Of a stretch of DNA of 64,000 bases, positions 2,205 to 26,334 are shown piece by piece. Below the pieces are notes generated by a model, which saw only the letters and a list, made by a program, of their open reading frames with translations, did no database searches and was not told where the DNA came from. Numbering within the stretch: the first letter of the stretch is position 1; each line of letters starts with the position of its first letter. Made by a program: the position numbers and the translations under genes. The stretch is from Flavobacteriales bacterium. GTDB taxonomy: Bacteria > Bacteroidota > Bacteroidia > Flavobacteriales_F > PHOS-HE28. Location of the stretch: NCBI GenBank assembly GCA_016788485.1, contig JAEUSV010000048.1:13956-77955 (forward strand), written 5' to 3'.

Positions 2205-3121
2205 GGGATGGTGAGCGTGCGCGCCGCCGCGCTGGTGCCGTTACCCGCCGCATCGGTGGTGCGGATGGTCCACTGGTACACGCCGGTGCCGAGGGAATCG
2301 CTGTGGCTCGTGCCCGTTACGGCCAGCCTGCGCACCGCCACCTGGTTCTGGTCGGTCACCAGCAGGCTGTCCACCGTGGCGGAGGCGTCGGTGCCGCTCT
2401 GCCATTGGAACGTGAAGGGCGCCTGGGGCAGCGTTGCGTTGGCCGCCGGGGCGATCAGCAGCGGTGCGGTGGGTGCGGTAAGGTCGATGCGGAAGCTGCG
2501 GTAGCTGAAGGCGGAGACCGATGTGCTGTTCTGCCCCTGTACGCCCCAGGTGTACAGCCCTTCGGGCAGGGCCGATAGCGCGCAGGTGGTGGTGGTGACC
2601 AGCTGCGCCTGCAGCAACGCGCCGTTCTGGTCGCCCTGGCGCAGCTCCACGCGGTAGTCCTGCGCACCGCCCAGGGCCTGCCAGCTGAGCGTGAGGGCCG
2701 TGGCGGACAGGGCGGCGTTGGCCGCCGGGCTCAGCAGAATGGGGGTGAGGTCCGCGAGGGAGGTGGCCTCCAGCACCACCAGCCGCCGCTGGTAGTAGTC
2801 GGTGTGGCTGCTGCCGTTTTCGGCCCGCACACGCCAGGTGTAGGCGCCGGGGGCCAGGGCGAAGGGGACCACCGTGCCGGTGACGACGGAGTCCACCACG
2901 TACACCTGCGGACTGATGAAGTCGGGCGTGGCGATCTGGATGCGGTACCCGGTGGCGTGCGGCACCTCCTCCCAGCGGAACTGCACCACGTTGCTGGTGG
3001 TGCTGTCCTGGTCGGGCGGGGTCAGCAGCACCACGCCCAGGCCGTCGAGGTCCTCTTCGAGGATGTCGCTGCACCCGGCGATGAGCAGGGCGGAGAGCAG
3101 GAGAAGGGGGAGGGTTCTCAT
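2201..3121 (-). CDS. lipoprotein with three tandem FN3/Ig-like domains, embedded in the secretion cluster
   Basis: Start ATG at 3121 gives MRTLPLLLLSALLIAGC (lipobox LIAGC). The upstream part of the 509-aa ORF is Arg/Pro/Ala-rich and overlaps the neighbouring gene. Three ~90-aa repeats share a pattern: FRWEEVPHATGYRIQI..YTWRVRA; LSWQALGGAQDYRVEL..YTWGVQG; FQWQSG..YQWTIRT. Confidence 0.75.
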   Translation of the reverse strand: MRTLPLLLLSALLIAGCSDILEEDLDGLGVVLLTPPDQDSTTSNVVQFRWEEVPHATGYRIQIATPDFISPQVYVVDSVVTGTVVPFALAPGAYTWRVRAENGSSHTDYYQRRLVVLEATSLADLTPILLSPAANAALSATALTLSWQALGGAQDYRVELRQGDQNGALLQAQLVTTTTCALSALPEGLYTWGVQGQNSTSVSAFSYRSFRIDLTAPTAPLLIAPAANATLPQAPFTFQWQSGTDASATVDSLLVTDQNQVAVRRLAVTGTSHSDSLGTGVYQWTIRTTDAAGNGTSAAARTLTIP

Positions 3122-3657
3122 GGCGAAACGGTGCGGAAGGTGAGGGTGGCCAGCAGGGTGCGCGAGCGGCTTAAGTGGGCCGGCGGCACGTGCAGGTCGA
3201 GCGAGGCGAGGTGCACACCGGGGAGCTCGCGCTCCAGGCGGTCGGCGCTGGTGAGCAGGGCATCGGCCCGCCCTTGGAGCACCACGGGCAGGGAGCGGAC
3301 GGTGAGGCCCTGGGTGCTTTCCACGTGTTCGGCGCTCACCTCGTGCAGCGCGGCACCGCCATCGTGGCCGAAGGCCGTGGTGCGCGCCAGCAGTTCGCTC
3401 CAGCGGTCGGCACCGGCGCGGCCGGCGTTGAGCTGGCGGTCCAGCCGGCCGAGCTGCGCGTGCAGGCGCGCCTGCTCGTGGCGGAGCTCGGCGGTGCTCG
3501 CCAGTTCGGCCTGTGCCGCATGCAGCTCCTGCCACGCCCGCAGGGTGGGCAGCAGCTTGCGTTGCACGAAGACGTAGCCCAATGCGCACACCACCACGGC
3601 CAGCAGCAGGAACTTGCGCTGGTGGTCCAGGTGGAAGGTGGTGGTGCCGGTGCTCAT
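3118..3657 (-). CDS. GspM/PilO-like assembly protein
   Basis: Start ATG at 3657 (MSTGTTTFHLDHQRKFLLLAVVVCALGYVFV). Short cytoplasmic tail, one TM helix, a coiled coil (RAWQELHAAQAELASTAELRHEQARLHAQLGRLDRQL) and a C-terminal alpha/beta domain. 179 aa, with 4-nt overlaps to both neighbours. Confidence 0.6.
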   Translation of the reverse strand: MSTGTTTFHLDHQRKFLLLAVVVCALGYVFVQRKLLPTLRAWQELHAAQAELASTAELRHEQARLHAQLGRLDRQLNAGRAGADRWSELLARTTAFGHDGGAALHEVSAEHVESTQGLTVRSLPVVLQGRADALLTSADRLERELPGVHLASLDLHVPPAHLSRSRTLLATLTFRTVSP

Positions 3658-4847
3658 GTGGTGATCTCCAGGTCGAACACGGGGTCGCCGCCGTCGGCGG
3701 CCAGCCGGTAGCCGAGCAGGCGCACCCCACGCACCCCGCGCACGGTGCGCAGGCTGTCCATCCACGCGTTCAGCAGCTCGGTGCGGGCGCAGGTGCCGCG
3801 CACCAAGGCCACGCCGCGGGCGATGCGCACCGGCTCGCGCTCCTGCAGCGGTGCCTGCAACGGGTCCAGGGCCAGGCGGTCCAGGCGGATGCCGGCGGGC
3901 ACCGTGGCGGCGATCGCCGCGGCCTGCACCGCGAGGCGGCGCAGGCTGTCCACGCCCAGGGCCTGGGCCAGGGCCTGCCGCTCCTGCAACAGCTGCCGCT
4001 CCTGTTCCACCGCCTTCAGCAGGGCCACGCGGTCCTGCACGTTGCCATCGGTGCGCGCGCGTTCCGCGGCCACCGTGCGCTGCAGCGCCCATTCGCCGCC
4101 GAAGAGGATCACGAAGAGCAGCAGGGCGCCCACCAGCAGCCGTTCGTACCGCAGGCGGGCCTTCTCCTGCGAGCGGGCGCCCAGCACCAGGTCGGCGTGG
4201 GTGCTGGCGCGTGCTTCCGTGGGCACCGCCCAGGCCCATGCGGTGGCGAAGGCGAGCGCCTGCGCGGCGGGCAGCCTGTCGGGGCCCAGCTGGATCATGG
4301 CGGCGCCGTCCGCGTCAACGCGTTCCAGTCGCAAGGACCCTTCGGCGCGCACGAAACGGGAGCGGTGCAGGGTGAGCGCATCGTCGGCACTGCCGAGCAG
4401 GGGCGCCAGGCCGAGCAGGTCCCAGGGGCCGATGGTGAGGTCGACCACGCGCGCACCGGCGGACTCGAACGGCGCGAGCAGTTCCAGGGCCTGGGCGCGG
4501 CGCATCATGCTGCAGCCGCTGGCGCCCGAGTGTGCACGCACGCTCACGCACAGGTCGTCCACCGGCGCGTTGGGGAAGGCCAGGGGCAGCAGGTCGTGCA
4601 ACGGGCCTTCGGCGGCCACCGCACGATGCACGCACCGCTCATGGTCGATGCACAGCGCCATGGGCACGCGTGTGCCGGTGGTCTTCAGCAGCTCCTCGGC
4701 CGTGGCGGCCGTTCCATGCGCGATCAGGTGCATGGCCTTGCGGCCGCGCCGCAGGTGCACCCAGGTGTAGGGCCGATCCTCCTGCAGGGGACCGATGGCC
4801 ACGCCCACCACCTGCCCTGCGCCCACGTACAGTCCACCCTGGTCCAT
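3654..4847 (-). CDS. GspL-like assembly protein (PilM-PilN fusion architecture)
   Basis: 397 aa: a ~220-aa cytoplasmic domain, a central TM helix (LLVGALLLFVILFGG), then a coiled coil and a periplasmic domain. This architecture and size match GspL. Direct sequence similarity is weak by eye. Confidence 0.55.
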   Translation of the reverse strand: MDQGGLYVGAGQVVGVAIGPLQEDRPYTWVHLRRGRKAMHLIAHGTAATAEELLKTTGTRVPMALCIDHERCVHRAVAAEGPLHDLLPLAFPNAPVDDLCVSVRAHSGASGCSMMRRAQALELLAPFESAGARVVDLTIGPWDLLGLAPLLGSADDALTLHRSRFVRAEGSLRLERVDADGAAMIQLGPDRLPAAQALAFATAWAWAVPTEARASTHADLVLGARSQEKARLRYERLLVGALLLFVILFGGEWALQRTVAAERARTDGNVQDRVALLKAVEQERQLLQERQALAQALGVDSLRRLAVQAAAIAATVPAGIRLDRLALDPLQAPLQEREPVRIARGVALVRGTCARTELLNAWMDSLRTVRGVRGVRLLGYRLAADGGDPVFDLEITT

Positions 4848-9764: not shown

Positions 9765-12700
9765 TCAGTGCTCCACCACCACCCGCTGCGCACCCACCAC
9801 GGCGCCATCGCGCACCAAACGCACCGTGTAGACCCCGGCGCTCCAGCCCTGCGTGCGCAGAGGGATGGGCTGTGCGCTACCTGCCGGCAAGGCCCCTGTG
9901 GCCACCACCTGGCCCAGGGTGTTCTGCACTTGGTAGCGTGTGCCGCTCGCCCACGGGCCGCCCGGTGCCAAGGTCAGCAGGTCGCTGGCGGGGTTCGGGA
10001 ACACGATGAAGGTGTGGCCGTCGAGCTCGGCCATGCCGATGGTGCTGATCACTTCCACGAAGAGGGTGTCGTACGTGGTGCAGCCATTGTTATTGGTCAC
10101 ATACGCCCACAACGGATGTGTGCCTGGAGTGGTCCACTGGACCTGAACAACCTGGGTGTTCTGGCCGGAGACCACAATGCCCCCGATCAGGTCCCAGTGC
10201 ACGATGGGCTGGAGGGTCGAACTCACATAGGTCGCGATCGAATCCACATCGACGCTCAGGGGGCCGGCGAATGAGAAGGATGGGCTGGGCAATGCACCGA
10301 TCGTTACGCTATCCGATGTCAGGGAACAGCCTTGGCTGTTGCTGCCCACCACGGCGTAGTTCCCGGGGCCTGGTGCGTACCATTGGGTGCCTGTACTGCC
10401 ATCGGGCCACAGATAGAACTGGGCGCCAGTGGCGGTCAGGAGCACGCTATCCTCTTGGCATGCCTGGGTCGCCGTAGCGGTGATCGCGGGCAGTGCTCCC
10501 GGCCAAAAGTTCACCGCAAGGCTGCTCGGTGGCGACGTGCCGCAGGCATTGCGGCCCATCGCGATCACATTTCCGGCCTGTGTGCCGAAGTTCACGGTGA
10601 TCAGGGTGTCGCCCTGCTCCGATTGGATCGATGCTCCAAGTGGCAGTAACCACTGCACGTCCAGGTAGGCGGTATCGCTGTGCACCCAGAAGGTGAGGCC
10701 GCTATCGCCGGGACAGACCGTCGTTGGCCCGTTGATGGGAGAGGGTTGGACAGTGGGAGTGTTCGTGCAATCTTGGAATATTGCGCAGTAGCTGCCGTTC
10801 ACGGAATAGTTCAGCCCGGGGATTTCATTCTGCAAAGGCATAGGGCCTTGACACCAAGCGCCAACAGCAAAATTGGCGTCGCCATTTTTGTTGCTCGTGA
10901 TCTTTCCATTGGTATATGTCGATGGGGAGAGATATGTCGACCACTCCAGAACACCATGACTACTGAATTTGCCGATGATCGAGACCTCACTGGCGCCTGG
11001 TGATGAGTCAAAGGCACCTGGTGTAATTAGCTGTGGGGATCGCGGATTCTCAAAACTGAAGAAAAAGCCCCCATTTGCTGCTGGCGAAACATCGGGTTCC
11101 TGAAGAGGGTTCGAATTGCCCCAATAACTTGCCCACTGAAGGTCCGTTCCCGAAGTATCAATGGCGGCAATTACGACGGTTCGATTCTGAAAGCCTTGAT
11201 AGGTCCCCAAATTGGATTGAAAGCAATTGTTGGTCACTGGAAATTCACTGCACGTGGTCGTTCCTGAGAGATACACATTCCCATCGTTTATCGCCATGGC
11301 TCCGAATCCTTCGGACAGAGCAGAAGCCAGATCCTCTGCGCGACTTCCGAAGTAAGTCGCCCACGCTAACTGGGCGTTCGGCGTTACTTTGGCGACGAAG
11401 GAACGCCGTACATCTGTTGCATAGCTTCCGGTTGTGGCAAACCCTGGGTCTGGGGAAGAGAAGTCTGACCATCCGAGCACGTACACATTTCCAGCGCTGT
11501 CAGCCTCAACCCTGCCGATCCCCTCGTTATGAGCATCCGAGCCAATGAATGTGCACCATTCGACGGCGAAGATGGAATAGACATCAAGCTTTAGCAGGTA
11601 ATCGTCGTAAGTTCCAATTCCGTTATTTACCGGCCTCCACACACCTGGCGTTGTCGGAAATGAATTTACGCCATTGCGTGTAGCGCTTAAGTAGAAGTGG
11701 CCATTCATTGCCGTCGCTTCGTTTCGTTCAACCTGATCAAGGTCAATTCGCCTTCCACACAGTAACGTGCCGTCGGAAATGAAAAATGCCGCGAGCCATG
11801 TTTTTCCGAATGTTGGCGGAGAATTGTAGTCAACCTGACTTTGGCTACCTGCTGTTCCGCAGATCACCGCGGTCATCTGGTCATACAATTCCACTTCCAT
11901 AAAGTAATCCTGGCCGATCCCACCATAATAGGACATGAACAATACTGTAGAGTCTTTAATGCAGCCATAGATCCCATCATATAACCCCAAAACGATCGTT
12001 TGATACGCTCCTGAAGTGGCCAGATTCGGGGTGTCCGTTCCCCCGGCGAAATAGATGAATCCATCGCCGATGAGCTCAAAGTCTACCAGTAAGCCGTTAT
12101 CTGGCATGAAACTCCCCCACAACAAGGTCGGCACCGGGTCCAACACGATCGTGCTTCCGGCGGGGGCTTCTTCTGCGGTGCGTATCCCGTACTCGCCCGG
12201 TCCGAGCTCCACGAAGGCGCCTTGCAAGGTGCCGCTGGCTTCCGGGGTGCTCCAGGTGCACAGGGGGATGCGCTCCACCAAGGCGCCGAAGCGCGTACCG
12301 ATGCGCAGGCCTTCGGACGTAAGCTCCAGTGCGTCAGCGCCCTTCACCTGCAGGCGGATGTCCGCCATGCGGCCGCCAGGGTGGACCACGAAATTGTACT
12401 TGAAGCCCTCGGCGCCCTGGGCAATGAACTCAAGGTCGATGTGGGGGTAGACCTCGCGGTACAACAAGCGACCGTAGCTGTGCACGAAGGTGACGCCGCT
12501 GTCCGGCACACCGACCGTGTAGAAGTTGTAGTGCGTGGGGCTGCGCTCCAAGGCCTCGCGCACACATCCAGGGTCAGCGCCGACCAGGTCGAAGTCGATG
12601 CGGTGCCATTGGCTGGGCAGGGGCACGGTGTCGAATTCCACCTCACCGGTGCGTTCGTTGCGCTTTTGCTCGCGCTGTTCGCGGTGGTACAGGTCGTAGC

Positions 12701-12941
12701 TGAAGCCGGTGGCGCGCAGCTGCACGTTGTAGCCGGGGCCTTGCAGCAGGTACAGGGCGGCGGGGTTGGGCTGGTCGTATTGGTCGATCAGCTGGCCCTT
12801 GTTCTCCATGAATCCCTGTCCAGCGGTAGCGCCAAGCTCCAGCTCCTTTCCGGGGCCACCCGCTTCAGCATGCAAGGGAGCGGCACACAGGGTCAAGAGA
12901 AGGAGGAGGCTCGGCTTCATGGTGAGAAGGGATAGGCGCAC
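9765..12941 (-). CDS. secreted SBBP-type beta-propeller repeat protein with T9SS type A C-terminal sorting domain
   Basis: Signal peptide (..MKPSLLLLLTLCAAPLHA). Repeats such as ..DSAGNVYVLGWS.. and ..NDGNVYLSGTT.. The C-terminal ~80 aa ..FIVFPNPASDLLTL..GVYTVRLV..RVVVEH match the Por_Secre_tail pattern. Confidence 0.85.
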   Translation of the reverse strand: MRLSLLTMKPSLLLLLTLCAAPLHAEAGGPGKELELGATAGQGFMENKGQLIDQYDQPNPAALYLLQGPGYNVQLRATGFSYDLYHREQREQKRNERTGEVEFDTVPLPSQWHRIDFDLVGADPGCVREALERSPTHYNFYTVGVPDSGVTFVHSYGRLLYREVYPHIDLEFIAQGAEGFKYNFVVHPGGRMADIRLQVKGADALELTSEGLRIGTRFGALVERIPLCTWSTPEASGTLQGAFVELGPGEYGIRTAEEAPAGSTIVLDPVPTLLWGSFMPDNGLLVDFELIGDGFIYFAGGTDTPNLATSGAYQTIVLGLYDGIYGCIKDSTVLFMSYYGGIGQDYFMEVELYDQMTAVICGTAGSQSQVDYNSPPTFGKTWLAAFFISDGTLLCGRRIDLDQVERNEATAMNGHFYLSATRNGVNSFPTTPGVWRPVNNGIGTYDDYLLKLDVYSIFAVEWCTFIGSDAHNEGIGRVEADSAGNVYVLGWSDFSSPDPGFATTGSYATDVRRSFVAKVTPNAQLAWATYFGSRAEDLASALSEGFGAMAINDGNVYLSGTTTCSEFPVTNNCFQSNLGTYQGFQNRTVVIAAIDTSGTDLQWASYWGNSNPLQEPDVSPAANGGFFFSFENPRSPQLITPGAFDSSPGASEVSIIGKFSSHGVLEWSTYLSPSTYTNGKITSNKNGDANFAVGAWCQGPMPLQNEIPGLNYSVNGSYCAIFQDCTNTPTVQPSPINGPTTVCPGDSGLTFWVHSDTAYLDVQWLLPLGASIQSEQGDTLITVNFGTQAGNVIAMGRNACGTSPPSSLAVNFWPGALPAITATATQACQEDSVLLTATGAQFYLWPDGSTGTQWYAPGPGNYAVVGSNSQGCSLTSDSVTIGALPSPSFSFAGPLSVDVDSIATYVSSTLQPIVHWDLIGGIVVSGQNTQVVQVQWTTPGTHPLWAYVTNNNGCTTYDTLFVEVISTIGMAELDGHTFIVFPNPASDLLTLAPGGPWASGTRYQVQNTLGQVVATGALPAGSAQPIPLRTQGWSAGVYTVRLVRDGAVVGAQRVVVEH

Positions 12942-12967: not shown

Positions 12968-14980
12968 CTAGGCTACCGGCAGGCTCAGTTTGGTGAATAG
13001 GGCTTGGTTACGGGCCTTGGAGTCGCGGATCAGCTTGTCGAAACTGATGATCTCGGTATACAGGTGGTAGTTCTCGTTGTAATGGAAGAAGCCGTCGTTA
13101 TCCGGCAACTGCCGATAGCCGGCGTCGCGTGCAAAGTCCCGAAGCTTGGGCGTAAGGTCGCACACGATGTAGGCGTAGATCGGGGTGTTCGCCCGTAGGT
13201 CCAGGGGGCGGTTATCCTTATCCACCGTGCTTGGTGTATTCAGTTCGCGGGCATAGCGGGTCACCTGGGCGATGGGGTTCTCCTTTTCGGAGTAGTCGTC
13301 CCGCAGCGGCTTCTTGAACTCCACCAGCACCACCGAATCGTAAGGCTTTTCCTTGCGCGAGAGGGCGAAGGCCGTGTTGAACACGATGAGATCGGGGCGG
13401 TCCTTGGAGTCGGAGCTCACCATGGCCTTCAGCTCCTTCATCGGCTTGTCCGACGCCAGGTAGGTGTGGAAGGCGAGGCGCTCGTCGATCAGCCACAGGT
13501 TATGATCCTCGAAGCCGATGTCGTCGCTGAAGGTCTTCAGCGGGAAGATGAGCTTGTGCACGGCCTCCTCACGCGCTGCAGCATTGCCGGCACCCTTGCC
13601 CAGGTGTTTCTCCAGCAGGTCGATCACCGTTCGGCGGTGCATCACGTACTCGGCCAGCTTGGAGCCCCCCACCTCGATGATCTTGTTGTAGAGCTCGCCC
13701 AGCTTCTCCTTCAAATGCTCCAGCTCATCTGGGCGGGAAAGCATGCCCATGGCTTTGTTGGCCTCGCTCATCACCTCCAGCTCAAGGCCCTGCTGGATCT
13801 TGAAGAGCTCCACCTCCATGCGCTCGTCGCTCAGGTTCGAAGGTACCCGGCGCACCTCCTCCGCCCGGTACTTGATCAGGTGGCGGTAGCGCGGATGCTT
13901 CACAACGAACTGCCGCACGCGCTGCATCCGCATGTCCGAAAGCTGGTGCAGGTGGTCGGCGAAATGGGCGCGGATCACCTCCACCACCTCGGCACGCACC
14001 TGGTCCAGGCTGATGGAATCGGTGTAGCGTAGTTCGTCCTCCTCGGCGCCCGAGCGCAGGTCAAGCCGTGTGCGCTCCTCGTTCACGCTCTCGTCCAGGT
14101 AAGGGCTGCTCACGTAGGCGGCAATGGAGAAGTACTGGCCGTGCTCGTCCTCGATCAAGCGGTCCAGGTCGGGTATGGCCAGGCTCAGCTTCTCGCGCTG
14201 CACCTCGCGGGTGTGGGCGCAATAGTGGATCTTGTTGTCCTCCCGTTCGTGGTAGAGCTTCACCACGCGCACGTCGAACGGTATGCCGTTGATCGGACGC
14301 TCTTCCTTCACCACGTGCCCTTTGGTGTACACCTGGAACAGGTCGTTCACCACGATGGTGCGGTCGCCGTCGATGATGCGGATGGTGGGGCAGGAGGGGT
14401 TGAGGAAGAAGACGAAGCAGTGCTCGATCACCTTCACGGCGATGTCCTCAGGGTCGTTGTTGCACCACTTGTGGTAGTCTTCGCGCAAGCCCTTCAAGCG
14501 AACGCTGGTGCGGCAGGGGCTGGTGCCGTCCAGCACCCGGTCGGTGGCATTCTCGATGCCTTTGCGGGAAGGGAGGAAGTCGAAGGTGCGGTGGCGAAGC
14601 TCCTGTTCCTGCCGGTACACGCTATCCACCTCCACTTTGGTGAAGGCCCGCAGCCAGGTGAAGCGGCCGATGCCCTTGCCACCGCGTTTCTCCTTGTAGG
14701 TGCTGTGGGCGTAGTTGAACGACTCGTAGTTCTTGGCGTTGAAGCCGATGCCGTTGTCCTCCACCGTGAAGTCGATGATGGGCGGCAGGGTGGCTTCGCC
14801 ATCCAGGGGCAGCTCGGGCTGGTTGAGCCGCCCAAGCGTAACAGTGATCAGGCCTTGATGCCCCGCACCAAGCTCCTCAATGGCATGGATGGAATTGACG
14901 AGGGCTTCGTACAGGGGCAGCAGCGTGTGGCTATAGGCCAGCTTCTTCTCCTTGATCTTGCCGCGGATGTCGATCTCCAT
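12968..14980 (-). CDS. GHKL (Bergerat-fold) ATPase fused to a C-terminal PD-(D/E)xK nuclease-like domain (Shedu/DUF4263-like); candidate defence protein
   Basis: N-terminal motifs: N-box YEALVNSIHA, G1 EDNGIGF, G2 RGGKGIGRF. C-terminal motifs: EEAVHKLIFPL .. RPDLIVFN .. VVLVEFKKP .. QVTRY (D..ExK order). 670 aa. GC is visibly lower (~55% by eye) than the surrounding high-GC genes. Confidence 0.8.
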   Translation of the reverse strand: MEIDIRGKIKEKKLAYSHTLLPLYEALVNSIHAIEELGAGHQGLITVTLGRLNQPELPLDGEATLPPIIDFTVEDNGIGFNAKNYESFNYAHSTYKEKRGGKGIGRFTWLRAFTKVEVDSVYRQEQELRHRTFDFLPSRKGIENATDRVLDGTSPCRTSVRLKGLREDYHKWCNNDPEDIAVKVIEHCFVFFLNPSCPTIRIIDGDRTIVVNDLFQVYTKGHVVKEERPINGIPFDVRVVKLYHEREDNKIHYCAHTREVQREKLSLAIPDLDRLIEDEHGQYFSIAAYVSSPYLDESVNEERTRLDLRSGAEEDELRYTDSISLDQVRAEVVEVIRAHFADHLHQLSDMRMQRVRQFVVKHPRYRHLIKYRAEEVRRVPSNLSDERMEVELFKIQQGLELEVMSEANKAMGMLSRPDELEHLKEKLGELYNKIIEVGGSKLAEYVMHRRTVIDLLEKHLGKGAGNAAAREEAVHKLIFPLKTFSDDIGFEDHNLWLIDERLAFHTYLASDKPMKELKAMVSSDSKDRPDLIVFNTAFALSRKEKPYDSVVLVEFKKPLRDDYSEKENPIAQVTRYARELNTPSTVDKDNRPLDLRANTPIYAYIVCDLTPKLRDFARDAGYRQLPDNDGFFHYNENYHLYTEIISFDKLIRDSKARNQALFTKLSLPVA

Positions 14981-17820: not shown

Positions 17821-18327
17821 TTAGGGCGTGCTAACTTTGAATTTACTTCCGGATTTTTGCAACTTGTACGAAATTGGTGTGCATAAATCAGATATAATTA
17901 TTGTTTGGATACAACTGGCGTCCATTTTACATTGCAATACTGAGTGAGGTCTTGAGCTAAGGGATTTACCGTATACTGAATTTTCACTTGGGATACTCAA
18001 TGAAGCTTCGATGGGAATATCTCCTTGTAGCGTGGTATAAACTGATAGTGTGCCAATTTCTGTATGGTAGGAAACGATACTATCTTTTTGAAGCGTTAAC
18101 CAAGGACCAAAACGCTTACCGTTGAGAAGCACGCCTACCATGATCGGGCCCCGAATTGAATCTGTTGTGAAGACAACACAGGTACAATGTTCTTTAGTGT
18201 TATTTGACACGTAGAACCCTTCAGATGTGTATGAAACGGAATTCAACTGGCATGTATCAATCTGTGCCAATGAATTTCCTGCTTCACAGAATATGACTGT
18301 GTAAAGGATGAAACGGAGTAAGTTCAT
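17821..18327 (-). CDS. candidate immunity protein for the RHS toxin (Cys-rich, signal peptide, very low GC)
   Basis: 168-aa ORF 3 nt downstream of the RHS stop. N-terminal signal-like MNLLRFILYTVIFCEAGNSLAQ, with six further Cys in the mature part. GC is roughly 40% by eye against 65-70% in the bulk genome. Its position is typical of polymorphic-toxin immunity genes. Confidence 0.7.
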   Translation of the reverse strand: MNLLRFILYTVIFCEAGNSLAQIDTCQLNSVSYTSEGFYVSNNTKEHCTCVVFTTDSIRGPIMVGVLLNGKRFGPWLTLQKDSIVSYHTEIGTLSVYTTLQGDIPIEASLSIPSENSVYGKSLSSRPHSVLQCKMDASCIQTIIISDLCTPISYKLQKSGSKFKVSTP

Positions 18328-18330
18328 GTT

Positions 18331-21300
18331 TTACTTGCCTTTAGGTGTGACCTTTTCCGTGTCTAGCGTCCTTGGATTGCCCATATAAATGTTCAGCTTG
18401 AGTTCGCCAGGTATTTTCAACACTTCGTCATTTCGCGTGTCAGGTATGCGGGTGTTCCCCGCACCGTCAAAAGGCACCAATCGAAGGATATCACGCGTCA
18501 TGTTCTCAAGTTGAAATCTTATAACGCGCATATCCTCATCAGTCAATTGTCTGGCAATGCCTGCGTCGCCACCGCGAGCTATGAAAGGGTCTGAGTGGCC
18601 ATAAAAAGACCCTAGCAATCCTCGGGTTATTGCCGCATCCCCGTTACGATTATCTCTGTTTTTGTAATCTTTTGAGTAAAATAAATTGAATGATTTCGAC
18701 GTAATTCCTTCTTCATTGAAAAGTATCAACGAATTATTTCCACCACCTCCTTGGAAACTATCCCCGCCATTATACGAGTCGTCAGAGTCAGTGAGCACAG
18801 AGCCCTTGCCGCTGGCAATTTCATAGGGCAGCTCGAAGCCCGTCGTTGCCTGCGCATAACCCTCTTCTTCGGCGATGGGGGTATTATTATGGACCAACAT
18901 GAACGTGTATACTCGCTGAGAATTAACGGCTTCGAAGTATCCATTTGCGAGAGCGCGGACATTGGGGTCACTTATATCTTTGACCGCAGCAAGGAAATCG
19001 GCCTCACTGATGGGCGCGAATTGATGTGTTCCTGCCTGTTGCTGGAATAATGCTTTGAGCGCATCGTAACCAGTGAACACCGTCTGAACGTGCAGCTGCA
19101 GTCTGGCGAACGATTGCTGATTCCCCCCTTGAACGACTTGTCCATCAGGATCAACAAACTGTAGCGGACTGTTCTTCGCGAAGTGGTATGGCGAATAGTG
19201 TGGGAGCAAACGGGCCTTGGGGTCGATGCCTGACCACCTACCGATACGTACATCCAATAACCTTGATCCGAAGTCATAACTGGTTGCATTGGAGCCAAAT
19301 ATCTCGTCATCCTTCTCCTTGCCGTTGAACCCGAACCGATAATCCCCCCCACTGGCCGTGGTGGCGTTCGAGATCATCCCAAAGGGAAAATAGTCGGTCT
19401 GGTTGAGCACCTCGGCGCGGTAGGCGGTGGGCGGGGTGGGCAGAGCGGCGTTGTCGCAGAGCTTACGATCGGAGACAACCGCGCGCACGTTCCCCAGGTG
19501 ATCAGCAAGCTCGTATCGCTTCTGGTTGAGGCTGCGGGTGCTGGTGGCGGGCAAGAGCTCGTACACCAGGGGCTGCAGGCCAATGGCGGCCTCCCCGCGG
19601 GCATCGGGCTGGCTGAAGAAGTCCCACGCGAAGGTGGGCGCGGGGTCGTTGGGGTCTTTGATGAGGAAGGCCTCGCCCTGGTTGTAGGCCCAGGCGGGGG
19701 TGGCCACGAGCATGTCGCCGTGCTTGGTGCGGCGTATGTCGCCGCCCTCGCCGGTGATCACATCGGCGGTGTTGGTGGCCAGGTCCAGGCGTTTCACTTC
19801 GTGGGTGGCTGTTCCGAAGGTAAGGCCGGTGCGCACGAAATACAAGTACTGGGTGCCGGGGGCATAGTCCAGGTAGTGGATGGCGGCATCGACCTCGTCG
19901 TAGGCGCCCAGGTAGCTGGCCGCCAGGTGATCGGGGCTCAAGGCGTAGCGGTGCACCGTTACGGTGGGCGCCCACAGGGTGTTGAGCAACAGGGGCCCAT
20001 CGGCCGTTACAAAGGCAAGCTCGGCCCCATCGGGCCGCAGCTGCAGCAGGCCCTGCTGGGCCTGGTCGCTGCCGGTAAGGGGCGGTGCCAGCGGGGCGAG
20101 CAGGCCGCCGCCGTTCTGGGTCAGGGCCTCCAGGTCGAGGCCCATGAGGGTGTAGTCGGTGCCCTGGCGGCGCACGGCGTACAGCATGGTGCGGCCGTAG
20201 GCGGTGCGGTCGTCCACCACGGCCAGCGCCCGGTCGTCCACGCTGGCGGGGTCGTTGTCCAGCGGCACGTTCTTCAGCACCACGGCCCCCTGGGTAATGG
20301 CGGTGATCGAGAGGTCGATGAGGTGGATGTAGGGCCGCCCATCGGGCCCGATGGTGAAGAGGTAGTGCTTGTTGGGGCTGCCGGGCACCTGGCAGCTGTG
20401 CGTTACGGTGTTGGCCGCGGCCCGTATGCCCTGGCTGTTCCAGAGCACATCGCCGTTGCGGTCCAGCAGGTACAGGGTGTGCACGGTGCTGCCGTTCACC
20501 ACCTGGCTGGTGGCAATGGTGGCGAAGAGGCGGTTGCCCTGGCGGTCCTCGGCGCGGTGCACGTTGGTGCAGCCGGTGCCCACCACGGTGTGCTGGGCGG
20601 TCATGGCCGGTATGGCGGGCACGGTGGGGCTGGTCGCGTAGGTGCGGGTGTAGGTGTAGTTGCTGCTGGGGGTGAGGATCTCGCCGGCGCGCAACTTGGC
20701 CACACGGCTGGGCACATCGAGCCGTTCGAGCTCGGCCTTGGGGGTGAGCAGGGTGGGCAGCTCACGTTGCTGGGCCCCATCCCACACGCTGCGGCGCACC
20801 ACGGGGTTGTCGCGGTGGGTGCCCAGGCGGGCGCTGCCGTAGATCAGGTGCTCTTCCAGGCGGGTCTCGTCGAGCAGCTGGCCGGTGGTGTTGTCGAAGG
20901 TGCGGCGGTAGGTGGCCAGGGGGTTGCCCTGCGCATCGAGCACGTAGTAGGTGAATACGTCGCCGGGCACGGGGGCCTGCGTAATGCCGCTGCCCGGCGC
21001 GCTCACATCGGCCTTCATCACGCGGTGGCCGGCGGCATCGTACGCAAAGCGCAGGTGGCGCCCGCTGCTCAGGGCCACGGCGTGCACCTTGCCGTAGGGG
21101 GTCCAGCTGATGGTGTTGCCCTGGTTGTTCCAGGTCTCCTGCTCGAGCTGGCCGATGGCGTCGTAGGTGTAGGTGTGCGTTTCAGCGAGGTCGTCGCCTG
21201 CGCCATTGATGCTTTCGCTGATGCTGGTAAGGCGGTTGGGGCCGTTGGGGTCGCCGTAGGCGTAGGCGATGGCGTCCAGGGGGTTCCCGTTCAGGTCAAA

Positions 21301-24300
21301 ACGCTTCAACGCCGGTTGGCCGCCGGCCAGGTTGTCGTTCACGAAGTTGCCGTTGGCATCGTAGGCATAGCTGGTGGCGTGCTCCAGCCCGCCGTCGGTC
21401 CATTGGCCGCCCACCAGGTCGCGCTGGCGGTCGGCCTTCAGGCGGTTGAGCACATCGTAGCGGTAGCGCATCACACGCCGGTCCTCGGCGTTGAAGGGCG
21501 GTTGGGGCGGCTGGTTGGCCTCGGCGGTCTGCGCCTGCCAGCTCCACGCGCCGATGTTACCGTTGTAGAGGTCGTCGCGCACGCGGCCGTTGCCGCTGGT
21601 GTTGTGGAAGGGGCTGTTCAGGTCGTTGAAGTCGCCGTTGAAGTAGGAGAGCATCATGCCGAAGGCGTCGCGGCCGGTGGTGCTGTTGGTGCCTGCGAAG
21701 CTGTCGGCGCCGGGGTCGAGGTTGGTGAGCTCGGGCGCGTTGATGGCCTTGAGCCAGCCCTGGATGGTGTAGGTATGGTCGATGCCCTGCACCTTGTCCT
21801 CGCCGAGCAGGGTGCGGCGCAGCGGTCCGTGGGCGTAGTAGCTGTAGGTGGCGTCGCGGTCCCACAGCACGCCGTCGGTGCTGGTCTGCGCGGTAAGGAT
21901 GCGCCCGTCGGCATCGTAGGTGTAGCGCTGGAAGTATTGGTCGGTGAAGCCTTCGTTGTAGCGCAGCTGGCGCACGCGGCCGCTCACCAGGTCGTAGTCG
22001 TAGGCCACATGGGCGCGCCCCAGGCCGGGCAGCTGGTGCACGAGCCAGGCCACGTTGCCGTGCACATCGTAGCTGTAGGCGGTGAGCACCTGGTCGTGGG
22101 TGGTGAAGAGGTCGCCGTCCTCATCGCTCACCGTCCAGCTCACGCGGTTCACCAGGTTGCGCTGGGGTTGGCCGTTGGGGAAGGTGAGGCCGGCCAGCGG
22201 GGCGGTGTAGGTGGTGCGGGTAACGAACTTGCCTGCGGCGGGGAAGCTGTTGTCGTTGGCGAGGGCGGGGTCGGTGAGCACGGTGGCGGCGGCCAGGTTG
22301 CTCTCGCCCACCTCGATCACGCGGCCCAGCTCGTCATACCGGGTGTAGCTGTAGGTGGGGGTGGGGTAGGCGGCCTGCTTGGCGTTCTGGCTGAAGCGCA
22401 GGCGGCCCAGGCGGTCGTAGGCCATGGTGGTGGCGCCGCCATCGGGGGTGCGCTGCCACACCAACTGGCCCAGGCTGTTGTAGCGGTACTGGGTGCGTTC
22501 GTCGTAGGCCGGCACGTTGTTGGGCCAGTTGGCCTCGGGCACACCGGCATGGTCGAGCTGCTTGTCCTCGTCGTTGGGCGGCACGGTGCTCATGAGGTTG
22601 CCGGCGCGGTCGTAGTAGTACAGGGTGTAGTGGTGCTTGCCGCTGGCGAAGCTCACGTGCAGGTTGTCCTGGATGTTGGCGGGCACGGCGCACCGGCTCA
22701 TGTAGTCCTGCGCGAACTGGTCCACCAGCTGTTCCACCTGCATGGTGATGGCCGCGAGCAGCTCCTGGCGCAGGGCCTGGGCGTGGATGGCCTCGCAGGA
22801 GAGCGCGGTGCTGGGGTCGGGCGGGGTGGCGGGCGCGACCTCAGGCACCCAATGCAGGCACACCTCGGTGGGTATGCACAGGTTGTTCACCTGGAATTGC
22901 TGGGGATCCTGGTTGTTGCATGGCACGCCGTCCACCACGGGATGCGCGGCGCCGATCAGGCTTGCGGTGATCAAGGCTTCGGGAGGCCCGATGCTGGATA
23001 CCGGCGAGCCTTGTGCCTGCACGGTGTTGCAGGCGCTTACGCAGGTGTTCTGCAGGGCGAGCACGAGGCAGTCGATCGCGGCTTCGTCGTTGTCGTTCGC
23101 ACCGGCCGAACTTTCCGGCTGCAGGCCGTACTCGGCGATCACGGCCTGGCGGAAGGCGGCCTCCTGTTGCGTGCTGAAGCACGCCGTGGTGCATGCGGCC
23201 ACGATCTGGTCCGCCTGGTCCTGGATCTGGGTGGGTGTGAGCGGTGCTGCGTTCAGGTCGATCTCGGCCGCAAGGCAGCCCATGAGCAGGTCGTAGCCGG
23301 TGGTGAGCACGCCCGGGTTGGCGGGGTCCATGATGATCGGCTCGGCGAAGGCCACGCCAGGCGTGAGCGGCGTGCCGTTGAGGCTCGGTGGGTCGAGCAT
23401 CAGTGCACCCTGCGTTGAGGTGAACGGCTGCAAGCTGGCCAGGAACAGGTGGCAGTCGCTGCCGACCACGTCATCGCTCAGCCCTTGGTACGCGTTGGTG
23501 AGGTAGCCTTGGGTGCTGGAGAATTGGAGCGGGGTATGGGTGCTTCCGGCTGTACTGTAAAGCACGTCCGTTCTGCGGCCCGCGCAGTCGAGGAACAGGT
23601 CCACGAGGTATTGCTGCGGAAGCGGTGTCGCCGGGTTATAGCCGGGCAAGGTGGCGGCCCCGGGGACCGACCCGGGTGTAATGGGGTTGGGCGAGTTCTG
23701 TGCGGCCAGAAAGGCCGTGTACCCCTGCACCGCCCCGATCCAGCAGCCCCAGATCTTTTCGCAGTCGTACGGGGCGCCACCGGTGGCCGGTATGTTCAGC
23801 ATGTTGTACATCAGTTGCGAGAAGCTCGCGTACGTGTAGACCGCTGTGGGGTCGCCACTGATGGGGTAGCTGAAATGGTCGCTCCAGAACGTGGCGGGCA
23901 GGTTGTTGAGGTCGGTGGGCAGATCGGGGTCGATGGCCTCGTTGTACGCGCTGATGAAATAGCGGAGCAGGGTGTCGGCATCGATCACGCACGGGGGGCA
24001 TTCGAGCTTGGGCAGGTTGATCGACGCGCATTCCAGGGCGATCTGCACCTGGTCGTTGCCCAGGTCGGTCACCAGGTTGCTGGCGTAGAAGGCGTCGAGG
24101 TCCGCATTGTCCAGTGCCGTCAGCAACGGGGCCACGGTGGTCAACATGGCATCGGTGTACGCTTCGCGCAGGGTCTGCTGGTGGGCCTGCAGCGCGGGCC
24201 AGCCGGGGAAGGCGGGGTCATTATCGTCCAGCACGTTGTTCACGCGGATGCGGCGGCCCACCTTGTAGGAGCCGGCGTTCAGGGTAACGGTGTGGTTGAG

Positions 24301-26334
24301 GCTGGGCACGGTGCCGGCGGCGGCGGAGCAATCGAGGTTGGCCAGGGTGAGCGGTGTGGGCCAGGTCGCCACCGCCAACGTTTCGGGGATCAGGTTCTCG
24401 GCCGGGCAATCGGTGCGCACCAGGTAGTACTCGATGGTATAGTCGCAGGTGGCGCAGTAGTTCGGGCATGCTTCCACCTGGTCCGGCGTAAGCGTGTAGC
24501 TGAGGGTTACTGCGGTGTTGTTCCCGGGGATCAGCAGGTCGGCGCCCGCATCGAGCATGTAGTTGTCCACCACCACGCCGCCGTTCACGTCGAAGGCTTC
24601 CTCCTCGTTGGCGTACTGCTCGCTCTCCAGGCCCACGAGCCTGCGGGAATCGTCGTCCAAGGGCAGGTTGGGGGCGGTGGTGCGCACCAGGCAGGTGGCC
24701 AGCGTCTTGCCCTCCTTGTCCTGGTAGGTGATGGAGGTGACGCCGTTGGGGTCCACGGTCATCATCTTCATCACGCTCTGCGCCTGGTAGGCCTCCTTGC
24801 CGAAGATGCGCAGCAGCTCAGCGGGCGTTACGGCGCCATAGTAGGTGCGCGCGGTGCGGGGCGTGGCGTTGTTGGCGAAGGCGAAGACCTCGCCCGGCCC
24901 GCTCACCTGGCGCACACGCCCGGTGCCATCGGGCAGGTAGGTGGTGCGGCTGAAGGGGTAGCCTTCGGCACTGGGCACCTGCGGGTCGCCGCTGTTGGAG
25001 TAGTAGGTCGTGGGCCCTGCGTTGATGGGGGTGTTGCTCCCCAGGGTGCCTGCGGGCAGGTCGAAGTCCGCCGCGGTGTAATTGCCGACAGACCCTTGGA
25101 GCAGCTGGTTCTTATAGCCGAGGGAAGGCTGCTGCCCAAGGGGCGTGGGAAGGCTTTGCAGGGCGGGCCTGCCCTGCAGGTCCATCACCGTTTGGGTGGC
25201 CACCACCGTGTTGTTGGCGCTTTGCCGCACCTGCTCCTGCTGCACCTGCTGCAGGTCGGTGGCGTAGGTGATGCGTTCGCCGATGCGCACGCCCTGGATG
25301 CCGTCGGGGTCGGGCTCGGTGAACATCCTGCTGTACGCCCAGTTGCGGTCCTTGTCGAACTGCTCGTAGTAGAAAACGGCCAGGCCGTAGGCGTTGCTCT
25401 GCCAGAGCCCTGTGCCCAGGGCGCTGGTGCGCTGCACGTTCACCACGGCGTTCTGCTGGGCCGCGGCGGGGTTCCAGGGCCCGCGGTTGCGCGCATCGGC
25501 GCCCCCGCCCGGTACGAAGTTGCTGATGGCCCGCACCCGCCAGGCATAGAAGCCGGTGCCTTCGGCCAGCGTAAGCGTCAGGGCGTTCTGCGGCGTGCCC
25601 GTTTCCAGGGTCATGGCCTGCGACCAGTCGACCGTGGTCTCAATGTGCTGCTCGGTGGTGAGCGCGGCGGAGCGGTTGTACAGCCGCACCAGCTGCACCT
25701 CGTAGTTGGTATAGGGGGCCGGGCACGGGCATTGGTTGTTGGTGGACCATTGCAGGGTCACCTGGTTCGATTGGGCACCGGCATTGGTCACCCCGGCCGG
25801 CATCAGGGCGCAGTTGGTGTTCGCGATGGGCGCGAAGCTCACGCGCCGGTCCAGGGTGATGCGCGCGTTGACGAAGGGCAGGTGCGTGCTGGCCGCGGCA
25901 AAACCGGGGTTGGGGGTGTCCTCGCGCACCACGCGCAGCGTATGCGTCTGCTGGTAGAAGGGGGAGAGGTCGAGCTCGATCACCTGTTCGGGTCGGTCGA
26001 GCGCCAGGTTGAGCTCGAAGGGGCCTTGCTCGAACACGGTGGTGTTGTTCAGGGCCAGGCCGATCACCTTGAAGCGGAGCCGGGCCGCGGGGTCGGAGAG
26101 CCCCAGGTCGTGGTCCTCTCCGGTGCGGAAGGCCACGCGCAGGCTGAAGCGCTCCACGCGGTAGGTGTTGCCGCACGCCACCGGCGTGGTGGCCTGGCTG
26201 AACAACGTGGTCGCGGGTGCGCCCAGTTGCGTGGATCCCAGATCCACCACGGTCTGCTGGGCCTGCAGCATGGCTGGCAACAGGGCGGCGATCGCCAGTG
26301 CGACCGTGCACGAAAGAAGGGTGCGGAACACCAT
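18331..26334 (-). CDS. RHS/YD-repeat polymorphic toxin (TcC-like), 2667 aa, with variable C-terminal toxin domain
   Basis: Signal peptide MVFRTLLSCTVALAIAALLPAMLQAQ and a ~1200-aa N-terminal region. Many YD repeats (YYYDRAGNLMS, YRYNSLGQLVWQRTPDGG, YDRLGRLRF, YTRYDELGRVIEV, YSYDVHGNV, YTYDADGRIL, YAYDANGN). RHS-associated core ..YFPFGM..RLLDVRIGRWSGIDP..SPYHFAKNSPLQFVDPDGQ (Q codon at 19138-19140). A 268-aa unrelated tail follows (18334-19137). Confidence 0.95.
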   Translation of the reverse strand: MVFRTLLSCTVALAIAALLPAMLQAQQTVVDLGSTQLGAPATTLFSQATTPVACGNTYRVERFSLRVAFRTGEDHDLGLSDPAARLRFKVIGLALNNTTVFEQGPFELNLALDRPEQVIELDLSPFYQQTHTLRVVREDTPNPGFAAASTHLPFVNARITLDRRVSFAPIANTNCALMPAGVTNAGAQSNQVTLQWSTNNQCPCPAPYTNYEVQLVRLYNRSAALTTEQHIETTVDWSQAMTLETGTPQNALTLTLAEGTGFYAWRVRAISNFVPGGGADARNRGPWNPAAAQQNAVVNVQRTSALGTGLWQSNAYGLAVFYYEQFDKDRNWAYSRMFTEPDPDGIQGVRIGERITYATDLQQVQQEQVRQSANNTVVATQTVMDLQGRPALQSLPTPLGQQPSLGYKNQLLQGSVGNYTAADFDLPAGTLGSNTPINAGPTTYYSNSGDPQVPSAEGYPFSRTTYLPDGTGRVRQVSGPGEVFAFANNATPRTARTYYGAVTPAELLRIFGKEAYQAQSVMKMMTVDPNGVTSITYQDKEGKTLATCLVRTTAPNLPLDDDSRRLVGLESEQYANEEEAFDVNGGVVVDNYMLDAGADLLIPGNNTAVTLSYTLTPDQVEACPNYCATCDYTIEYYLVRTDCPAENLIPETLAVATWPTPLTLANLDCSAAAGTVPSLNHTVTLNAGSYKVGRRIRVNNVLDDNDPAFPGWPALQAHQQTLREAYTDAMLTTVAPLLTALDNADLDAFYASNLVTDLGNDQVQIALECASINLPKLECPPCVIDADTLLRYFISAYNEAIDPDLPTDLNNLPATFWSDHFSYPISGDPTAVYTYASFSQLMYNMLNIPATGGAPYDCEKIWGCWIGAVQGYTAFLAAQNSPNPITPGSVPGAATLPGYNPATPLPQQYLVDLFLDCAGRRTDVLYSTAGSTHTPLQFSSTQGYLTNAYQGLSDDVVGSDCHLFLASLQPFTSTQGALMLDPPSLNGTPLTPGVAFAEPIIMDPANPGVLTTGYDLLMGCLAAEIDLNAAPLTPTQIQDQADQIVAACTTACFSTQQEAAFRQAVIAEYGLQPESSAGANDNDEAAIDCLVLALQNTCVSACNTVQAQGSPVSSIGPPEALITASLIGAAHPVVDGVPCNNQDPQQFQVNNLCIPTEVCLHWVPEVAPATPPDPSTALSCEAIHAQALRQELLAAITMQVEQLVDQFAQDYMSRCAVPANIQDNLHVSFASGKHHYTLYYYDRAGNLMSTVPPNDEDKQLDHAGVPEANWPNNVPAYDERTQYRYNSLGQLVWQRTPDGGATTMAYDRLGRLRFSQNAKQAAYPTPTYSYTRYDELGRVIEVGESNLAAATVLTDPALANDNSFPAAGKFVTRTTYTAPLAGLTFPNGQPQRNLVNRVSWTVSDEDGDLFTTHDQVLTAYSYDVHGNVAWLVHQLPGLGRAHVAYDYDLVSGRVRQLRYNEGFTDQYFQRYTYDADGRILTAQTSTDGVLWDRDATYSYYAHGPLRRTLLGEDKVQGIDHTYTIQGWLKAINAPELTNLDPGADSFAGTNSTTGRDAFGMMLSYFNGDFNDLNSPFHNTSGNGRVRDDLYNGNIGAWSWQAQTAEANQPPQPPFNAEDRRVMRYRYDVLNRLKADRQRDLVGGQWTDGGLEHATSYAYDANGNFVNDNLAGGQPALKRFDLNGNPLDAIAYAYGDPNGPNRLTSISESINGAGDDLAETHTYTYDAIGQLEQETWNNQGNTISWTPYGKVHAVALSSGRHLRFAYDAAGHRVMKADVSAPGSGITQAPVPGDVFTYYVLDAQGNPLATYRRTFDNTTGQLLDETRLEEHLIYGSARLGTHRDNPVVRRSVWDGAQQRELPTLLTPKAELERLDVPSRVAKLRAGEILTPSSNYTYTRTYATSPTVPAIPAMTAQHTVVGTGCTNVHRAEDRQGNRLFATIATSQVVNGSTVHTLYLLDRNGDVLWNSQGIRAAANTVTHSCQVPGSPNKHYLFTIGPDGRPYIHLIDLSITAITQGAVVLKNVPLDNDPASVDDRALAVVDDRTAYGRTMLYAVRRQGTDYTLMGLDLEALTQNGGGLLAPLAPPLTGSDQAQQGLLQLRPDGAELAFVTADGPLLLNTLWAPTVTVHRYALSPDHLAASYLGAYDEVDAAIHYLDYAPGTQYLYFVRTGLTFGTATHEVKRLDLATNTADVITGEGGDIRRTKHGDMLVATPAWAYNQGEAFLIKDPNDPAPTFAWDFFSQPDARGEAAIGLQPLVYELLPATSTRSLNQKRYELADHLGNVRAVVSDRKLCDNAALPTPPTAYRAEVLNQTDYFPFGMISNATTASGGDYRFGFNGKEKDDEIFGSNATSYDFGSRLLDVRIGRWSGIDPKARLLPHYSPYHFAKNSPLQFVDPDGQVVQGGNQQSFARLQLHVQTVFTGYDALKALFQQQAGTHQFAPISEADFLAAVKDISDPNVRALANGYFEAVNSQRVYTFMLVHNNTPIAEEEGYAQATTGFELPYEIASGKGSVLTDSDDSYNGGDSFQGGGGNNSLILFNEEGITSKSFNLFYSKDYKNRDNRNGDAAITRGLLGSFYGHSDPFIARGGDAGIARQLTDEDMRVIRFQLENMTRDILRLVPFDGAGNTRIPDTRNDEVLKIPGELKLNIYMGNPRTLDTEKVTPKGK

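Follow-up and report, generated by a model that had tools for sequence, protein, structure and literature searches.

Is a solitary gene that joins an ATPase to a nuclease a defence system, and has such a fusion been described before? The question is raised by a 64,000-nucleotide stretch of DNA from a Flavobacteriales bacterium (assembly GCA_016788485.1, contig JAEUSV010000048.1, positions 13,956 to 77,955), hereafter called the window, which carries a 670-amino-acid (aa) open reading frame (ORF) on its minus strand. By homology, the protein encoded by this ORF (the window protein) is a member of the VcSduA/paraMORC3 family. Quite probably, the gene product is a nuclease of the VcSduA type that works alone and acts against phages (or other invader DNA) through an ATP-gated clamp mechanism. 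The initial annotation of the sequence had left it undecided whether this fusion was already catalogued; it is, under the names paraMORC3, Shedu type I-D, and VcSduA. Judging from sequence comparison, the gene is a further copy of an already described and validated family and not a new kind of system. The gene and its parts are as follows.

12968..14980, minus strand: complete 670-aa VcSduA-type (paraMORC3 / Shedu type I-D) gene with an ATG start and a stop codon at 12968-12970 (ORF listing and translation, homologues, BLASTP against VcSduA)
14396..14980, minus strand: GHKL (Bergerat-fold) ATPase domain, about residues 1-195 (conservation, AlphaFold2 model, Foldseek, sub-threshold Pfam matches)
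14906..14908, minus strand: codon of E25, the predicted catalytic base of the ATPase and equivalent of VcSduA E27 (alignments)
14051..14395, minus strand: S5/transducer-like middle domain, about residues 196-310, with the family-invariant R258 (Foldseek, predicted local distance difference test (pLDDT) 82-92, secondary structure, conservation)
13601..14050, minus strand: long helical arm, about residues 311-460, probably a coiled-coil or clamp region (helices 325-460 in the AlphaFold2 model)
12971..13600, minus strand: PD-(D/E)xK nuclease domain, Shedu/RecB-like, about residues 461-670 (conservation, Pfam across the family, domain model)
13313..13315, minus strand: codon of K556, the lysine of the ExK motif and counterpart of VcSduA K557 (sequence; equivalence drawn through the Vibrio homologue)

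The ORF at 12968-14980 was confirmed by the ORF listing and its translation. All of the motifs which had been read by eye were found in the order and spacing given: YEALVNSIHA (residues 24-33), EDNGIGF (74-80), and RGGKGIGRF (99-107) near the N-terminus and EEAVHKLIFPL (470-480), RPDLIVFN (528-535), VVLVEFKKP (550-558), and QVTRY (572-576) near the C-terminus. Because more than 1,100 homologues came up in a database search (the best with 71% identity), the ORF is a real gene and not a chance ORF. Over all searches, the identities of full-length homologues range from 35% to 71%. The best 120 homologues are all full length (655-698 aa), share 52-71% identity with the window protein, and come chiefly from Bacteroidota.

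Membership in the VcSduA family

It is known from the work of Iyer, Abhiman and Aravind in 2008 that paraMORC3 proteins consist of GHKL and S5 domains with an added C-terminal RecB-like nuclease of the E-D-ExK type (PMC2292703). They are prevalent in Bacteroidetes and Proteobacteria and occur sporadically in bacteria and archaea. The nuclease-bearing subset is encoded by stand-alone genes with no conserved neighbourhood, and it was left open in 2008 whether the function is restriction-modification (R-M)-like or distinct (PMC2292703). No defining feature of paraMORC3 differs from the window protein: the GHKL and S5 domains, the E-D-ExK C-terminus, the bias towards Bacteroidetes and Proteobacteria, the sporadic spread, and the stand-alone gene were all observed here. 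Later, Gu et al. (2023) designated Shedu homologues having GHKL (HATPase_c_3) and an Hsp90/MORC-like middle domain ('N24') as type 1D (10.1101/2023.08.10.552793). Adams et al. (2025) reported that VcSduA from the V. cholerae VSP-II(WASA) island confers protection on E. coli from Drexlerviridae and on V. cholerae from phage X29, against which it is natively active; relatives of VcSduA had earlier been annotated as paraMORC3 (PMC12137116). In their study, the substitutions E27A (ATPase) and K557A (nuclease) each abolished phage defence. Cultures were protected at all multiplicities of infection (MOIs), which the authors read as direct restriction preserving host viability, and VcSduA was modelled as an entwined dimer with a clamp-like cavity, whereas a tetramer was not supported (PMC12137116).

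In a BLASTP comparison, the window protein is 32% identical to residues 1-399 of VcSduA (AWB73059.1, 673 aa) over 397 aa, with an E value of 5e-59. The window residue E25 aligns with VcSduA E27 in an alignment of 249 family sequences. A V. fluvialis plasmid copy, which is 63% identical to VcSduA, aligns with window residues 1-668 (E 2e-104). Both this copy and one from Acinetobacter (A. johnsonii) have E27, and their ExK lysines are K556 and K558, respectively; the two lysine positions bracket the published K557. It was also found that three plasmid records retrieved with the window protein, from Rhodococcus (NC_023144.1), Hymenobacter (NZ_CP053909.1), and Salinivibrio (NZ_CP114585.1), with E values of 1e-106 to 1e-113, appear as entries 34, 220, and 435 among the hits which the authors tabulated for their VcSduA model. 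The features of the family found in the window protein are the GHKL motifs, an S5/transducer domain, an E-D-ExK C-terminus, homology to VcSduA, and a stand-alone gene. Shedu membership in the narrow sense of Pfam and PADLOC does not extend to the window copy and holds only at the family level. When the V. fluvialis copy was used as the seed of a homology search, the VSP-II allele did not come up, and the only match was a near-identical mobile variant of 672 aa. This variant (86-100% identity) occurs in Vibrio, Aeromonas, Klebsiella, E. coli, Proteus, and Morganella.

The window protein and VcSduA (A1552VC_00276 of V. cholerae A1552) are alike in length (670 and 673 aa), in the order of domains (GHKL, middle domain, helical arm, and PD-(D/E)xK nuclease), in the equivalent positions E25/E27 and K556/K557, and in being encoded by stand-alone genes. 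On the other hand, the window copy falls in a Bacteroidota clade, inside which identities are 52-71%, and is itself only about 32-35% identical to the gammaproteobacterial clade. In the G2 box, the window protein reads GGKGIGR and VcSduA reads KGCRGVGR. While VcSduA lies in the VSP-II genomic island, the window copy has a chromosomal site among genes for cargo of the type IX secretion system (T9SS). Finally, VcSduA has been examined experimentally, whereas the window copy is known from its sequence and has no Pfam SduA_C match.

ATPase, transducer domain, and helical arm

Three GHKL motifs were located in the N-terminal domain: motif I (E25xxxN29), motif II (D75-N-G77-x-G79), and motif III (G100-G-K-G103-x-G105-R106). 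The residues E25xxxN29, D75xG77xG79, and G100..G103xG105 are at least 97% conserved in 248 family members. With the single sequence, Pfam gave only sub-threshold matches to HATPase_c (E 0.0019) and HATPase_c_3. A full-length AlphaFold2 model, built on a 41-sequence alignment, is confident at residues about 20-310 and in the helices from 325 to about 400 and is poor at 440-560. The pLDDT is about 80-90 in the ATPase domain and about 80 in the helical arm up to residue 400. A Foldseek search with the N-terminal half found TRAP1/Hsp90, the GyrB/ParE 43-kDa fragments, and Topo VI-B with E values of about 1e-11. Since these alignments (about 370-540 columns) extend across the ATPase and transducer regions of GyrB 43K, TRAP1, and Topo VI-B, the N-terminal half is read as a GHKL ATPase and a transducer (S5-like) domain followed by a helical arm. 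The Foldseek matches and the invariant motifs I-III bear out the N-terminal GHKL ATPase proposed in the initial annotation. If other GHKL ATPases are taken as a guide, R258 of the transducer domain may be a candidate sensor of the gamma-phosphate.

The GHKL and transducer fold at residues about 1-440 is shared with MutL, GyrB/ParE, Topo VI-B, Hsp90, and MORC, in which ATP-driven dimerisation is coupled to a nuclease or a DNA-gate partner (PMC2292703). Unlike these ATPases, the window protein has its nuclease, of the PD-(D/E)xK type, fused in cis. Pfam and NCBIfam searches detected no TOPRIM, MutL C-terminal endonuclease/dimerisation, or Hsp90 C-terminal domain in it. Moreover, the MutL and topoisomerase ATPases are distributed universally and vertically, while the GHKL-nuclease family is patchy and tied to mobile elements.

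Nuclease domain

For the analysis of the nuclease, the region corresponding to residues 455-670 was cut out of 53 diverse homologues. Seven residues (E471, H475, D530, E554, K556, Q572, and Y576) are invariant in these 53 C-termini and at least 97% conserved in 248 members. They make up the E-D-ExK signature that marks the restriction-endonuclease fold and, after it, a QxxxY motif of the RecB type. When the 53 C-termini were scanned against Pfam, PF14082 SduA_C (formerly DUF4263) came top, with 18 of the 53 matching at E <= 10 and a best E value of 9e-6 (as a control, a classical Shedu scores 1.3e-25). The other families matched were HSDR_N (12), NERD (5), and also VRR_NUC, all of which are PD-(D/E)xK families. 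A model of the C-terminal part alone has a pLDDT of 82.8, a predicted template modelling (pTM) score of 0.82, and an alpha-beta-beta-beta-alpha-beta core. At the family level, the rank of PF14082 and the invariant E-D-ExK and QxxxY residues substantiate the Shedu-like PD-(D/E)xK nuclease which had been proposed for the C-terminus. With the window copy alone, none of the checks which had been suggested (the DUF4263/SduA_C profile, PADLOC, and structure search) gave a significant nuclease match; the nuclease assignment is therefore drawn from the family-level evidence. When the PDB was searched by sequence and by profile, neither the full protein nor the full-length or C-terminal alignment gave any match.

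Classical Shedu SduA (B. cereus and E. coli; 8TI8, 8TI9, and 8PS4) shares with the window protein the PD-(D/E)xK core and the order of motifs, and it too defends as a single protein, whose N-terminal regulatory domain varies (10.1101/2023.08.10.552793). The N-terminal domain of classical Shedu is small and non-enzymatic, and the protein works as a tetramer, whereas VcSduA was modelled as a GHKL-type dimer. A further difference is that the window copy falls below every SduA_C threshold and that Foldseek recovers no solved Shedu structures with it in the top 50.

Distribution and genomic contexts

How widespread is this family, and where do its genes lie? In a scan of one genome per species, relatives were found 326 times among 185,579 genomes, always at full length; as the scan used two clade-specific peptide patterns, 326 is a lower bound. 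At least 10 phyla including archaea are represented, among them Bacteroidota, Cyanobacteria, Nitrospirota, Planctomycetota, Bacillota, Verrucomicrobiota, and Acidobacteriota; further hosts are giant sulfur Gammaproteobacteria and anaerobic methanotrophic (ANME) and halobacterial archaea. An exhaustive search with a profile of the C-terminal domain gave 2,013 clusters at 50% identity, 914 of them at E <= 1e-30. In the top 150 representatives, the nuclease domain occupies residues about 450-680, and the proteins are about 655-720 aa long; the shorter entries are presumably fragments. The nuclease subtype is essentially confined, in these 150 representatives, to the GHKL architecture of about 670 aa. 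The Bacteroidota clade comprises well over 100 clusters at 90% identity.

The window gene thus adds to an experimentally validated single-gene anti-phage group of about 2,000 clusters at 50% identity in bacteria and archaea, which current annotation overlooks: Pfam, NCBIfam, and PADLOC-DB 2.0 all miss the window protein, and public records name family members 'hypothetical' or 'ATP-binding protein', with one phage copy called 'amidase'. The alignment of the Bacteroidota clade, with its sharply defined invariant residues, can be used for a better detection profile and as mechanistic guidance.

A conserved partner gene was sought by all-versus-all BLAST of the neighbouring ORFs at 76 loci, and none was found. 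The most widespread neighbour cluster, a RteC regulator of conjugative transposons, occurs at only 7 of the 76 loci, and the 12 annotated contexts are all different, as expected for the single-gene system that had been suggested. The window and the locus of the closest relative (71% identity) share nothing except the GHKL-nuclease gene.

A defence context had also been postulated. At the family level, the homologues are not consistently embedded in housekeeping operons; defence islands or mobile elements account for 9-10 of the 12 annotated contexts. Homologues lie immediately beside a type IIG R-M gene, near KilA-N and AbiE, near AbiGi and ImmA/DUF4411, near a Schlafen/AAA_21/DUF4011 helicase, in an RteC integrative and conjugative element (ICE) with DUF3800 and Mrr-nSTAND, and in an HNH/NADAR cluster flanked by a transposase. 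One is carried by a Clostridium prophage, with the tail genes on one side of it and the endolysin gene on the other, another lies on an IncC Vibrio plasmid with a type I R-M system and a classical Shedu gene directly upstream, and a third lies on an Acinetobacter plasmid beside a cyclic-oligonucleotide-based anti-phage signalling system (CBASS). In total, homologues were found on 58 plasmids.

Several of these loci deserve description in their own right. On the V. fluvialis IncC plasmid (NZ_AP028130.1; locus L086, 8619-12013), the classical Shedu gene (PF14082, E 1.3e-25) and the GHKL-Shedu gene overlap by 4 bp, and the pair lies directly downstream of the type I R-M system, which carries an inserted AAA ATPase gene. 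Seventeen Agrobacterium plasmids, many of them about 194 kb in size (similar to tumour-inducing (Ti) plasmids), have a full-length homologue of ~27% identity annotated only as 'ATP-binding protein'. The Riemerella phage vB_RanS_PJN03 (ON245412.1, 40034-42049) encodes a full-length homologue with 26% identity (E 3e-60), which is labelled N-acetylmuramoyl-L-alanine amidase, probably a mis-annotation. At the locus of the closest relative (L088, 3200-10895), the homologue, a RE_XamI/Eco57I type IIG enzyme gene, KilA-N, and DUF6088/AbiEii lie together. These four elements are flanked by a 3-hydroxyacyl-CoA dehydrogenase/enoyl-CoA hydratase gene and a thiolase gene and look like a defence islet inserted into a beta-oxidation operon. 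Near the Flavipsychrobacter homologue (L002, 2705-6149), a second, different GHKL gene (708 aa, HATPase_c_3) comes after a terminase-like gene and before a 435-aa ORF and may represent a further system of the MORC/paraMORC type. A DUF3800 gene abuts the stop codon of the homologue in a metagenomic Bacteroidota ICE (L005, 12070-12801) and overlaps the 3′ end of the homologue on an Acinetobacter plasmid (L087, 10001-11182), in unrelated hosts. DUF3800 was considered as an occasional partner and rejected; the two DUF3800 proteins show no detectable similarity to each other, and the gene is absent from every other locus fetched.

Proposed function and alternative explanations

How might the protein work? 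In the reading preferred here, the N-terminal GHKL ATPase and S5/transducer domain would dimerise upon ATP binding, as in GyrB, MutL, Hsp90, and MORC, and the long helical arms would form a clamp enclosing DNA. The ATPase cycle would then license the C-terminal PD-(D/E)xK nuclease (E471, D530, and E554-x-K556) to cut foreign DNA. The phage would be restricted directly and the host would not be killed. The dimeric DNA clamp, the coupling of the ATPase to the nuclease, the recognition of some signal or DNA feature, and the activity of the window copy in its host are what I infer. The domain architecture, the intact catalytic residues, the homology to VcSduA, the stand-alone organisation, and the genomic contexts of relatives support the initial suggestion of an ATP-dependent sensor or clamp coupled to a nuclease as a one-gene anti-phage module.

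Several observations weigh against the assignment of the window protein to VcSduA-type defence. The experimental support for the family comes from V. cholerae VcSduA, outside Bacteroidota (PMC12137116), and the direct comparison with VcSduA covers residues 1-399 only (those given in a preprint supplement), the C-terminal third being linked through the V. fluvialis and Salinivibrio copies. The window copy has no match to PF14082 SduA_C even at E <= 10, and NCBIfam gave no relevant match for the window protein. In PADLOC-DB v2.0.0, the full window protein matches no family, and 0 of the 53 C-termini match the Shedu model. A Foldseek search of the PDB with the C-terminal model gave no significant match. 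Its top-ranked targets are all PD-(D/E)xK nucleases (McrC, NucS, Can2, Cas4, AF1548, and MspJI; E 0.07-2), the best being McrC, NucS, Can2, and Cas4 (E 0.07-0.5); the solved Shedu structures 8TI8, 8TI9, and 8PS4, which are present in the library, fell outside the top 50. An hhalign comparison with one classical Shedu protein, the one encoded beside the Vibrio homologue, was not significant (E 0.12); it does, however, put four motifs in register, namely RPD/ITD, VEFKKP/IEIKKP, the Q of QxxxY, and at the terminus IISFDKL/IITFDEL, which speaks for a Shedu-type nuclease. As for the locus, no defence or mobility gene is directly adjacent in the window, the codon usage of the window copy is fully host-like (GC content at third codon positions (GC3) 0.87), and 2 of the 12 annotated contexts are solitary insertions among housekeeping genes.

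Does the Bacteroidota clade, then, work unlike VcSduA? Its members are tightly conserved (about 656-690 aa) and often solitary in the chromosome, the codon usage of the window copy is host-like, and the nuclease core is divergent, Shedu profiles and solved Shedu structures not being recovered with the window copy. The clade might consist of domesticated clamp-nucleases for host DNA or of sensors with an independently acquired RecB-like nuclease. One possible role is that of a GHKL clamp-nuclease for host DNA repair or chromosome maintenance. Another possible role is that of an immune sensor, whose GHKL part recognises a protein or DNA-topology cue and whose nuclease is not a true Shedu domain. 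I consider such a departure from VcSduA improbable.

It is also unlikely that the protein is an abortive-infection (Abi) effector, in which a triggered GHKL sensor would unleash the nuclease on all DNA, including that of the host, so that the infected cell dies. Such a mechanism has been proposed for some Shedu-class proteins, for example, PD-T4-8 (10.1101/2023.08.10.552793). A PD-(D/E)xK nuclease with no paired methylase has no obvious means of discriminating self from non-self, and relatives of the window gene adjoin Abi-type genes. However, VcSduA protects robustly at all MOIs, which its authors take for direct restriction (PMC12137116).

A domesticated housekeeping enzyme, no longer an immune protein and serving the host in repair, recombination, or the control of topology as MutL or Topo VI-B do, was raised as a possibility for stand-alone paraMORC3 genes by Iyer et al. 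(PMC2292703). It would fit the fold, which is akin to the ATPase modules of MutL, GyrB, and Topo VI-B, as well as the host-like GC3, the window neighbourhood lacking adjacent defence or mobility genes, and those homologues which lie among housekeeping genes. This explanation seems quite unlikely, given the extremely patchy distribution (326 matches in 185,579 species genomes with the patterns used), the lack of synteny even with a 71%-identical relative, and the frequent copies on plasmids, ICEs, prophages, or phages. Furthermore, the MutL C-terminal domain and the TOPRIM domain were not detected, and the sole member examined by experiment, VcSduA, is an anti-phage protein (PMC12137116).

Finally, it is very unlikely that the gene acts with its neighbours, either co-transcribed with the downstream gene for a T9SS-secreted DUF7948/PKD protein (same strand, a gap of 26-47 bp, and no predicted terminator between) or as part of an RHS toxin locus (an RHS-repeat protein is encoded less than 3.5 kb upstream), since such neighbours are conserved in 0 of 76 related loci, the flanks of the closest relative are entirely different, and the window protein has no signal peptide or T9SS C-terminal domain.

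Base composition and neighbouring genes

The GC content of the ORF had been estimated by eye at about 55%; the measured value is 60.8%, against a window mean of 65.4%. The GC3 of the ORF is 0.87, and that of the neighbouring genes is 0.69-0.86. Since the GC3 is host-like, the lower overall GC content of the ORF reflects amino-acid composition and not recent acquisition. The lower-GC islet that had been described does exist as a stretch at about 10-19.5 kb; it is not restricted to the GHKL-nuclease ORF. The GC content falls to 0.50 at 11-12 kb, within the downstream gene, which is the following.

9765-12941, minus strand: gene with DUF7948, PKD_6, and Por_Secre_tail domains, encoding T9SS cargo (Pfam)

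This gene had been called an SBBP gene, a name to which Pfam lends no match at E <= 0.01. The gap of 26 bp which had been reported between the two genes is correct if the GTG at 12941 is the start codon. The ATG at 12920 precedes a clear signal peptide (MKPSLLLLLTLCAAPLHA) and for this reason is more probably the start; the gap is then 47 bp. A terminator scan between the GHKL-nuclease gene and the downstream gene predicted none. A sigma-70 promoter scan gave no hits, a result which carries no weight in a probable Bacteroidota genome. The flanking ORF on the upstream side encodes a DUF5122 beta-propeller protein (Pfam). From the flanking ORFs, it was verified that no methyltransferase, integrase, or partner gene adjoins the GHKL-nuclease gene.

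Other features of the window

A tRNA search of the whole window found none. A 2133-aa ORF at 27068-33469 (minus strand) has no Pfam match at E <= 0.001. At 2201-3730 (minus strand), a 509-aa ORF weakly matches the Ig-like domain of phage tip attachment protein J, its score of 22.8 bits (E 1e-4) lying below the cut-off of 29. The RHS-repeat ORF mentioned above (2667 aa, 18331-26334, minus strand) drops to 45% GC at its 3′ end, and a 168-aa ORF (17821-18327, minus strand) lies 4 bp downstream of it. Pfam gave no match for the C-terminal tip of the RHS protein or for the 168-aa ORF. The region 17821-26334 is laid out like an Rhs polymorphic toxin locus, in which a variable C-terminal tip is followed by an immunity gene.

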